DNA of 14,789 bases. It comes from a virus. Numbering within the stretch: the stretch's first letter is position 1; each line of letters begins with the position of its first letter. Of this stretch, positions 3,446 to 3,919 are shown piece after piece. Location: the IMG/VR virus record IMGVR_UViG_3300031673_000984; one strand, written 5' to 3'. A program made the position numbers and the translations under genes. The notes below the pieces were generated by a model. The model ran no database searches. It was given only the letters and a program-made list of their open reading frames with translations, and was not told the origin of the DNA.

Positions 3446-3460
3446 ATTGTTTAAACTAAA

Positions 3461-3492
3461 AAATGCCTTGAGTTTTAATTCTCAAGGCATTT
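3461..3492 (-). terminator. perfect 12-bp hairpin followed (on the minus strand) by a T6 run, ending 16 nt upstream of the 3445 start codon
   Basis: AAATGCCTTGAG-TTTTAATT-CTCAAGGCATTT. The minus strand reads hairpin-TTTTTTAGTTTAAACA-ATG. Either a terminator for an upstream minus-strand transcript or a 5'-UTR structure. Confidence 0.45.
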
Positions 3493-3620
3493 ATTGGGGC
3501 CCACCCATTAGGGAGGATTAAATAAATTAGTTGAGAAAAGTGGTAAGAGAGGTTTTCTGTTGTCTATATCGAAGTAACTCTTTCCTTACTACAACTTGTT
3601 TTAATATTTTATGATATTAC

Positions 3621-3636
3621 AAATATAACCAATAAC
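3621..3636. repeat. copy 1 of recurrent motif AAATATAACCAA(A)(A)TAAC
   Basis: Direct inspection. Matches copies at 3731-3752 and 10764-10782. Confidence 0.3.
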
Positions 3637-3730
3637 AGCCCAAAATAAAAATGTTTTTTGTTAAGTTATTGTTAATTTATTTTATATATGTTTTTTCAAT
3701 TTTGGGATAAGTGTACTTGTCGTACATATT

Positions 3731-3752
3731 AAATATAACCAAAAAATAACCA
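3731..3752. repeat. copy 2 of recurrent motif AAATATAACCAAAAAATAACCA
   Basis: Direct inspection. The minus strand reads TTGGTTATTTTTTGGTTATATTT. Confidence 0.3.
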
Positions 3753-3919
3753 AAAGAAAATAAAAATTGTTAAAATATTGTTAAGGGCGTCTTTTTTCAA
3801 TAGTTAGTAGATATATAATTTATATTAACCTTGTGCTTGAGGGTTCAGTGTTCTAGAAACATTTGAGTTGGAGAAATACCAGCGAATGAATTTTCAAATA
3901 TAAAATAAAGTAAGGAATT

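Follow-up and report, generated by a model that had tools for sequence, protein, structure and literature searches.

A divergent control region with a predicted Y-RNA-like RNA upstream of Ro60 in an AT-rich crAss-like phage

The virus record IMGVR_UViG_3300031673_000984 (IMG/VR), a stretch of 14,789 nucleotides (nt) that was analysed whole and is here called the window, has a G+C content of 33% and carries nearly all of its genes on the minus strand. Positions 3446-3919 lie between the ATGs of 3131-3445 (minus) and 3920-4690 (plus), and hold only mechanical open reading frames (ORFs) of 21-45 amino acids. The original prediction had called this interval the largest ORF-free stretch, and at 474 nt it is the biggest gap of the window, the next being 8141-8361. 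On its minus-strand side begins an operon that encodes a 557-amino-acid TROVE/Ro60 protein (1217-2890, minus; Pfam 2.4e-17, PHROG 850). Ro60 and Y RNAs form a conserved RNA-surveillance system known from human autoimmunity, whose role is not well understood in bacteria and even less so in phages. The question here is what lies in the gap beside this phage Ro60 operon. The region is probably a divergent control region of an AT-rich crAss-like phage, comprising promoters, a Y-RNA-like RNA named R1, a terminator and a plus-strand leader, and no replication origin.

The nearest named relatives of the window Ro60 are those of the crAss-like phages cr111_1 and csAssE-Sib, at about 50% identity. A megablast search of the window against INPHARED phages gave zero matches. 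The relatives used included a sister contig, L001, whose Ro60 is 86% identical, and eight metagenome contigs (72-93%).

R1, an RNA family linked to Ro60

The two features at the centre of the argument are the following.

3595-3530, minus strand: R1 RNA, a 66-nt hairpin, identified by covariance models, promoter and terminator.
ATG at 3445, minus strand: p104-p74-Ro60 operon, in which p74 is 2902-3126 and Ro60 is 1217-2890.

The basal helix of R1, P1, consists of four base pairs (GUUG/CAAC) and is followed by a bulged U (3591), AG/CU pairing, an asymmetric internal loop and an 8-bp helix, P2. The apical loop of 28 nt starts with the invariant UUACUUCGA (3577-3569). In a consensus hairpin from nine units, the bulged U is invariant, and the loop opens with (A/U)UAC(U/A)UCG and ends with AAAC. 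Some members of the family have an additional hairpin in the apical loop. In the alignment with L001, R1 stands out as a sharply conserved block downstream of the promoter module P_B described below, and this block is duplicated in L001, which has two R1 units against one in the window. In L007-L010, the R1 unit lies upstream of Ro60, singly or in tandem.

The hairpin is supported by covariation. In an unfitted MAFFT alignment (A3), 92% of cells are paired, compared to 40-54% in slid controls, and seven of the 14 pairs are compensatory. In alignment A4, 17 sequences fitted to the covariance model, 95.7% are paired and 13 of 14 pairs are compensatory. The single copy in the window scores 80.4 bits with model R1 and 75.8 bits with model R2. 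G-U pairs, promoter and terminator all assign it to the minus strand, and the predicted primary transcript of about 160 nt runs from about 3613 to 3455.

R1 is a strongly covarying family outside Rfam 15. With that database, the interval 3300-4050 gave only chance microRNA and small RNA matches at E<=10, and the whole window gave only a tRNA at the gathering threshold. A blastn search of R1 against INPHARED phages returned zero matches. Exact-pattern scans with the R1 5' half and with block (a) recovered the sister contig alone, and a looser pattern was required. In bacteria, represented by one genome per species, a 15-16-base pattern gave at least 120 matches, and among those listed one passed the whole-unit filter. 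Its stem is not formed when inspected by eye, and no bacterial R1 copy was thus obtained with this narrow pattern.

The linkage to Ro60 was seen in three sets of loci. Beyond its training set, all matches of model R1 adjoin Ro60 genes, which have 34-51% identity. L002 has one match upstream of Ro60 and another downstream, L011 has three tandem matches, and L003, cr111_1 and the 634-kb phage LR745206 have a single match each. In the pattern-derived set, matches with a Ro60 homologue at the same locus are without exception on its strand, and only one of them is not upstream; p74 usually separates the RNA from Ro60. A third set, of 79 further loci, was picked solely by Ro60 homology so as to avoid selection bias, and was searched with the broader model R2; the broad Ro60 alignment was too divergent for the locus search, and a narrower one was substituted. 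R-family copies within 3 kb are present in 69 of the 79 loci, and all 169 matches are on the Ro60 strand. The loci typically have one to three tandem copies ending 60-500 nt upstream of Ro60, and a few copies are located just downstream. The suggestion of a noncoding RNA tied to Ro60, made in the original prediction, is strongly supported by the covariation and by these loci.

Published criteria for Y RNAs are a long stem of the 5' and 3' ends, an adjoining conserved motif, and a position on the Ro60 strand within 4 kb (PMC4201824; PMC12135203). R1 has such a stem and ends 637 nt upstream of Ro60 on the common strand, and its motif is loosely similar. A Y RNA is expected to have a long stem plus a large loop and a length of 80-130 nt; R1 has a 14-bp interrupted stem, a 28-nt loop and a core of 66 nt within the longer predicted primary transcript. 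With YrlA, the bacterial and phage Y RNA family, the R1 family shares a position a few kb from Ro60 on the same strand, often in several copies, and a long stem, formed by the two ends of the RNA, that adjoins a conserved motif (RF02553, PMC4201824). Its gut crAss-like relatives also share the domain made of a T-arm followed by a D-arm. R1 differs from YrlA in an extra basal helix with a bulged U and in the motif (A/U)UAC(U/A)UCG instead of GNCGAAN0-1G. The window has no match to YrlA (RF02553) even at E<=10.

The clearest connection to YrlA comes from csAssE-Sib (L005). In its copy 1, an unannotated unit upstream of the other two, the R stem encloses a permuted T-arm and then D-arm, with a Rfam YrlA score of 28.5 bits (E 4e-4). 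The Rfam alignment of this sub-threshold match places the family AUACU opposite the conserved AUGCU of YrlA beside the outer stem. As a positive control, the YrlA of Gordonia phage Neville is located directly upstream of Ro60, at an equivalent position. YrlB, a second, simpler Y RNA having the Ro-binding region, is a lead only for R1. This short Salmonella RNA is mentioned in PMC4201824. The Yrl1 and Yrl2 RNAs of the Thermus phage phiLo, which were shown to bind the phage Ro60, are likewise short phage RNAs in a noncoding region upstream of Ro60, with a 5'-3' stem flanking a loop or bulge that has a CGAA-type motif (PMC12135203). They were found by motif and single-sequence folding, and the R1 family by covariation across many phages. 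R1 is likened to them by description, not by sequence.

R-family units also occur together with tRNAs. In csAssE-Sib (L005, OR575929; 5526-5926) and in L334-L394 (about 2500-2945), R-stem halves enclose annotated tRNAs. In several marine phages, R1 units are interleaved in tRNA arrays, with spacers of 0-4 nt to the flanking tRNAs. Phage tRNA arrays with R1 units are present in L038 and L049 (one contig), L053, L129, L030, L039, L117 and L058, and examples are tRNA-Asp, R1, tRNA-Asn and tRNA-Cys, R1, tRNA-Gln. Some of these units have inserts of 60-80 nt in the apical loop. The tRNA-abutting layout may be likened to that of independently processed small RNAs.

These arrangements bear on a rival explanation, by which R units are leader, trailer or spacer signals of tRNA precursors, the window copy is a relic after tRNA loss, and the proximity of Ro60 is incidental. 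Such a role would account for marine units that abut tRNA genes on both sides and for gut crAss-like copies 2 and 3, whose stem halves flank the GenBank tRNA-Tyr and tRNA-Lys (43 and 53 bits with the tRNA model), and phage Ro60 genes are often near tRNA clusters. Those embedded tRNAs, however, have mismatched acceptor stems, and one embedded element is the permuted YrlA-type domain. Stand-alone units that lack any tRNA show compensatory changes across many loci where they are conserved, and each is served by a promoter and a terminator of its own. Distant Ro60 loci without nearby tRNAs (L002, L003, L015) carry the RNA 23-380 nt from Ro60. The precursor explanation is therefore considered improbable, and the gut-phage tRNA-Tyr and tRNA-Lys upstream of Ro60 may be Y-RNA modules and not decoding tRNAs.

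The most likely identity of R1 is that of a minimal, Y-RNA-like partner for the phage Ro60. This reading follows from the Ro60 linkage, the tRNA-like and YrlA-like stem inserts in gut relatives, and the tRNA-abutting units. R1 would be the stem-only variant of a YrlA-related, Ro60-linked family outside RF02553, with a presumed Y-RNA-like function. In the literature searched, no paper linking Crassvirales to Ro60 was found, and a 2023 catalogue of viral structured RNAs mentions neither Ro60 nor Y RNA.

Promoters, terminator and probable read-through

The minus-strand signals around R1 are the following.

3784-3730, minus strand: promoter module A (P_A), with TTAACA at 3784-3779, N5, TTAACA at 3773-3768, N30, and TATATTTA at 3737-3730.
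3675-3620, minus strand: promoter module B (P_B), with TTAACA at 3675-3670, N5, TTAACA at 3664-3659, N31, and TATATTTG at 3627-3620.
3517-3500, minus strand: small hairpin CCUCCC-UAAU-GGGUGGG in the minimum-free-energy fold, between R1 and the terminator.
3492-3455, minus strand: R1 intrinsic terminator, AAATGCCTTGAG-AATTAAAA-CTCAAGGCATTT then TTT, with the U tract UUU(UUU).
3537-3479, minus strand: possible antiterminator, in which the R1 3' strand and flank (3537-3521, UUCUCAACUAAUUUAUU) pair with the terminator 5' arm (3495-3479, AAUAAAUGCCUUGAGAA).

A recurrent motif had been proposed for this region, and it is real: TTGGTTATATTT, the reverse complement of AAATATAACCAA, is found exactly at 3621-3632, 3731-3742 and 10764-10775, and with one mismatch at 886-897 and 3742-3753. 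These five copies, all of them on the minus strand, compare with an expectation of 0.43, and five were reached in one of 200 shuffles. The copy formerly placed at 3731-3752 is present and consists of two overlapping half-repeats 11 nt apart. Likewise, the TTGTTAA repeats noted earlier number four in the region. They come as two pairs, at 3658 and 3669 and at 3767 and 3778, with an offset of 11 nt within each pair. Across the window, TTGTTAA has 12 copies on the plus strand and its complement two. A tandem duplication of about 110 bp, which had gone unremarked, relates 3616-3675 to 3726-3784 and holds two motif copies.

In reverse complement, the motif reads as a promoter core, TTGGT-TATATTT(G/A), and it represents the -7/-10 part of minus-strand promoters. 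As had been asked of it, it is positioned relative to gene starts: the minus-strand copies at 886-897 and 10764-10775 sit 19-26 nt upstream of the ATGs of minus-strand genes. Protein genes preceded by such promoters are those at 867, about 10740, and 9440, the last with a TATATTTG box 18 nt upstream of its ATG. Bacteroidota sigma-A promoters have a -33 TTG and a -7 TAnnTTTG element, and the core TATATTT(G/A) fits the latter. Across related contigs the architecture is fixed as TTAACA-N5-TTAACA-N30/31-TATATTT(G/A), and it precedes protein genes as well as R1. In P_A and P_B, the 30/31-bp spacer is T-rich. The TTGTTAA repeats are thus upstream promoter elements of fixed geometry, a role the original prediction did not foresee.

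P_B lies about 25 nt upstream of R1 and is likely its promoter and, via read-through, that of the Ro60 operon. The same architecture is found 19-37 nt upstream of R1 in L001, L008, L010, L021, L062, L083, L093, L096, L100, L101 and L128. P_A is kept in L001, and its equivalent in L129 precedes a protein gene that is missing from the window. Further modules in the window are 12217-12164 and a degenerate copy at 940-890. At these two sites (12164-12217 and 890-940, minus), and also in L007 (2367) and L049 (3428), the promoter of the next gene encloses the terminator hairpin of the gene upstream, in a compact layout: this hairpin sits in the 31-nt spacer that separates the TTAACA boxes from the -7 box.

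In the crAss-like Cellulophaga phage phi14:2, 5' ends of middle-gene transcripts have been mapped experimentally (bioRxiv 10.1101/2020.03.07.982082). The -7 boxes of its middle promoters upstream of g070, g092 and g093 are identical to the TATATTTG of the window. As in Bacteroidota sigma-A promoters and phi14:2, this box is located 5-25 nt upstream of start codons in the window. The long intergenic junctions g004-g005 and g005-g006 of phi14:2 are reported to be transcribed above most genes, without an assigned function (bioRxiv 10.1101/2020.03.07.982082). The expectation of divergent promoters is supported for the region, with the minus-strand modules on one side and a conserved ATATATAA box before the plus-strand leader on the other.

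A role in replication or packaging had also been suggested for the region. With 23-26% GC it is the part of the window poorest in GC, its direct repeats have 11-bp phasing, and the cumulative skew turns locally, which are the features that AT-rich repeats at an origin or a packaging (pac/cos) site would present. The repeats are, however, all elements of promoter modules with fixed spacing, which recur at many genes of this and related phages. The change in AT/GC skew tracks gene orientation and coincides exactly with the single plus-strand gene. A further iteron-like array was not found in the region, and the conserved blocks covary in the manner of RNA. This part of the earlier proposal is not supported, and an origin or packaging site here is considered extremely improbable.

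The hairpin at 3461-3492 has a perfect 12-bp stem and an 8-nt loop, and ends 10-15 nt before the ATG at 3445. The original prediction had its structure and its place next to the start codon right; its identity as the R1 terminator is new. It has five G-C pairs in the stem, and only on the minus strand is it scored as an intrinsic terminator. The order R1 unit or units, short hairpin, terminator, spacer of 10-30 nt and ATG is kept in most AT-rich relatives. The short hairpin at 3517-3500 aligns with the insert hairpin GGUCACC...GGUGGCC of the second R1 unit of L001, and may possibly be the remains of a lost second unit, derived from its apical hairpin. The space between the terminator and the ATG at 3445 does not accommodate a promoter, and the p104-p74-Ro60 operon is therefore probably expressed by read-through.

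In the proposed sequence of events, P_B would start transcription about 20 nt upstream of R1, and the transcript would end at the intrinsic terminator. R1 would then bind the ring of Ro60, whose gene lies 0.6 kb downstream, and would tether or modulate it during infection. Read-through of the terminator would set a high ratio of RNA to mRNA for the operon. Alternative pairing between the R1 3' strand and the terminator might conceivably regulate this read-through.

The evidence for such pairing is a sequence YGAGA(A) in the terminator 5' arm, which is complementary to the invariant 3' strand UUCUCA of R1 and is present in eight of eight post-R1 terminators, compared to one of 76 other terminators of the same phages. 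The possible antiterminator of the window is complementary at 14 of 17 positions and excludes both P1 and the terminator. Folds of truncated transcripts form it in 13 of 15 loci. Covariation of this helix is weak to moderate, with 78.5% paired and a score reached by 29 of 500 shuffles. P1 melts in 11 of 11 informative real loci, and also in about 53% of folds in a control with shuffled downstream sequence. As P1 melts about half the time in this control, the antiterminator is kept as a hypothesis only.

Two readings make use of this pairing. In the first, R1 and the terminator are purely a cis-acting attenuator, of the riboswitch or protein-binding leader type, and R1 is not a trans-acting Y RNA. 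The conserved layout of promoter, structured RNA, intrinsic terminator and ATG agrees with this, as do the complementarity, the truncated-transcript folds, and some helix extensions that covary (GG/CC, GA/UC). It is contradicted by the R1 units within tRNA arrays, which have no terminator or ORF after them, by units downstream of Ro60 (L002, L316, L317, L324) and in tandem, and by gut relatives, whose terminator differs and lacks such complementarity. The low formal covariation score and the shuffled control count against it as well. A purely cis-acting role is accordingly judged unlikely.

In the second, the Y-RNA-like RNA is retained and serves as a sensor while nascent, so that the R1 leader and terminator would form an attenuator responsive to Ro60. 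Binding of Ro60 or p74 would stabilise the weak basal helix P1, the terminator would form, and the Y-like RNA would be released. When the protein is absent, the R1 3' strand would pair with the terminator 5' arm, and polymerase would read into p104-p74-Ro60. Leaders of ribosomal-protein operons are autoregulatory and mimic the RNA target of the protein. Like such leaders, that of the Ro60 operon would carry a copy of the presumed RNA ligand beside a terminator subject to a competing pairing, although this is hypothetical for R1. No description of Ro60 autoregulation via a Y-RNA mimic was found in the literature searched. The Ro60-responsive attenuator is offered tentatively, as a possibility that is open to considerable doubt.

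Several observations weigh against the reading of the region as a control region with a Y-RNA-like R1. Transcription of R1, its RNA ends and its binding to Ro60 are all predicted from sequence. The published Ro60-contact motif is GGUCCGA, or GNCGAAN0-1G in bacteria (PMC4201824; PMC12135203); it is only loosely matched by UACUUCGA, and CGAA is present in some members only. R1 matches neither Y_RNA nor YrlA of Rfam and has no tRNA-like domain, and the YrlA score of csAssE-Sib is far under the gathering score (28.5 against 69 bits). Ten of the 79 Ro60 loci have no match within 3 kb. Because many positive loci are near-identical gut phages, they represent about ten independent lineages. The association could be partly indirect, since Ro60 and R1 both tend to be near tRNA clusters. 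In the promoters, a -33 TTG does not stand at about 19-20 bp from the -7 box, and TTT is found there in P_A, P_B and relatives. The modules differ from Bacteroidota sigma-A promoters in having two TTAACA boxes at about -40 to -60 instead. The missing -33 TTG makes binding of an activator to the TTAACA pair plausible, and suggests that the modules depend on one.

The p256 leader and neighbouring genes

On the plus strand, three features were distinguished.

3812-3819, plus strand: ATATATAA box, a putative -10/-7 element for p256, from which the transcription start is deduced.
3831-3903, plus strand: three-way-junction leader, identified by covariation, preceding p256.
3920-4690, plus strand: p256 gene, the only plus-strand gene of the window.

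Transcription on this strand would proceed from the ATATATAA box through the three-way junction into p256. The box is invariant in the five closest relatives, in which its flanks are unconserved, and it is located 9-13 nt upstream of the conserved (A/T)TAACC start of the leader. A more distant clade has a TATATTTA-like box in its place. The leader P1 is formed by 3837-3847 and 3887-3897, the P2 hairpin by 3848-3852 and 3858-3862, and the P3 hairpin by 3867-3871 and 3879-3883. The P3 loop AGAAAUA is near-invariant, with one G-to-U change. An invariant AACCUUG at 3827-3833, at the 5' edge, could pair with UAAGG just before the p256 ATG.

The block 3805-3907 has about 90% identity to L001, and the adjacent coding sequence for the p256 N-terminus is poorly conserved. 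Seventeen distinct leader homologues were found, each directly upstream of a gene of the p256 family, whose N-terminus reads ...F[IV]TK.KQR[IV]KQ...GDE[FY]E[LI]E[LI]FNP. In their MAFFT alignment, 99.7% of cells are paired (slid controls 32-45%) and 10 of 20 pairs are compensatory. Many G-U pairs assign the leader to the plus strand, and it is unmatched in Rfam 15. A second clade has the leader and p256 without Ro60 or R1 in the sequence at hand, and the leader therefore belongs to p256 and not to the Ro60 system. It probably controls the translation or stability of p256.

Three other candidates in this part of the region were rejected. A minus-strand RNA in 3800-3900 would fold at -7.4 kcal/mol, whereas the plus strand reaches -19.9 kcal/mol and is also favoured by G-U pairs. 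The TATATTTG sequence at 3902-3895 was considered as a third minus-strand promoter; its conservation is accounted for by the 3' strand of the leader P1. The leader CGAAUG was considered as a Y-RNA motif; it is not invariant (CAAAU in L067), its strand is wrong relative to Ro60, and the leader accompanies p256 also in phages in which a nearby Ro60 was not found.

The products of p256, p104 and p74 have no significant Pfam, PHROG, NCBIfam or PDB-sequence match, and p74 (2902-3126, minus) has an insignificant match to bacterial Hen1 (E 0.05). Most AT-rich relatives have a conserved p74 of about 70 amino acids in the interval from the R1 terminator to Ro60, with homologues in L001, L008, L010, L021, L026, L047, L049, L096, L100, L103, L112 and L128. 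It may be a third component of the Ro60/R1 system. In L001, an insertion of about 1.35 kb (4631-5977) with two ORFs of 259 and 120 amino acids is located between the p74 homologue and Ro60.

The neighbouring minus-strand genes and the tRNA of the window are the following.

948-1142, minus strand: cold-shock-domain protein, directly downstream of Ro60.
4829-5179, minus strand: thioredoxin.
6981-7054, minus strand: tRNA with anticodon CUA, an amber suppressor (62.7 bits).
7955-8317, minus strand: PTH2 peptidyl-tRNA hydrolase (PF01981, E 2.6e-9).
8592-9440, minus strand: radical-SAM-like protein.

Ro60, PTH2, the suppressor tRNA and the other neighbours give the window an RNA- and translation-related flavour. 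The PTH2 frame is interrupted by a single TAG at 8288-8290, ahead of the domain, and offers no other start codon beyond it. Together with the amber-suppressor tRNA, this suggests that TAG is recoded in the phage of the window. The 222-nt gap at 8141-8361 is therefore probably coding.

Meaning for Ro60 in crAss-like phages

The crAss-like phages are the most abundant human gut viruses. R1 provides a candidate RNA partner for their Ro60, and for that of marine and jumbo relatives. The R family comprises stem-only, hairpin, YrlA-like and tRNA-embedding versions. The work also yields two RNA families outside Rfam 15 that are ready for covariance models, a promoter architecture for this phage group, and an attenuation hypothesis.

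If the Y-RNA-like reading is true, the R units would be a modular family in which one Ro60-binding stem bears nothing, a hairpin, a YrlA-type domain or a tRNA-like unit. Such a family would link Ro60 with tRNA arrays in abundant gut and marine phages, and some annotated phage tRNAs beside Ro60 are possibly misannotated Y-RNA modules. If the attenuator is also true, the locus would be a self-balancing circuit for the stoichiometry of RNA to protein, in which Ro60 would regulate itself via a Y-RNA mimic.

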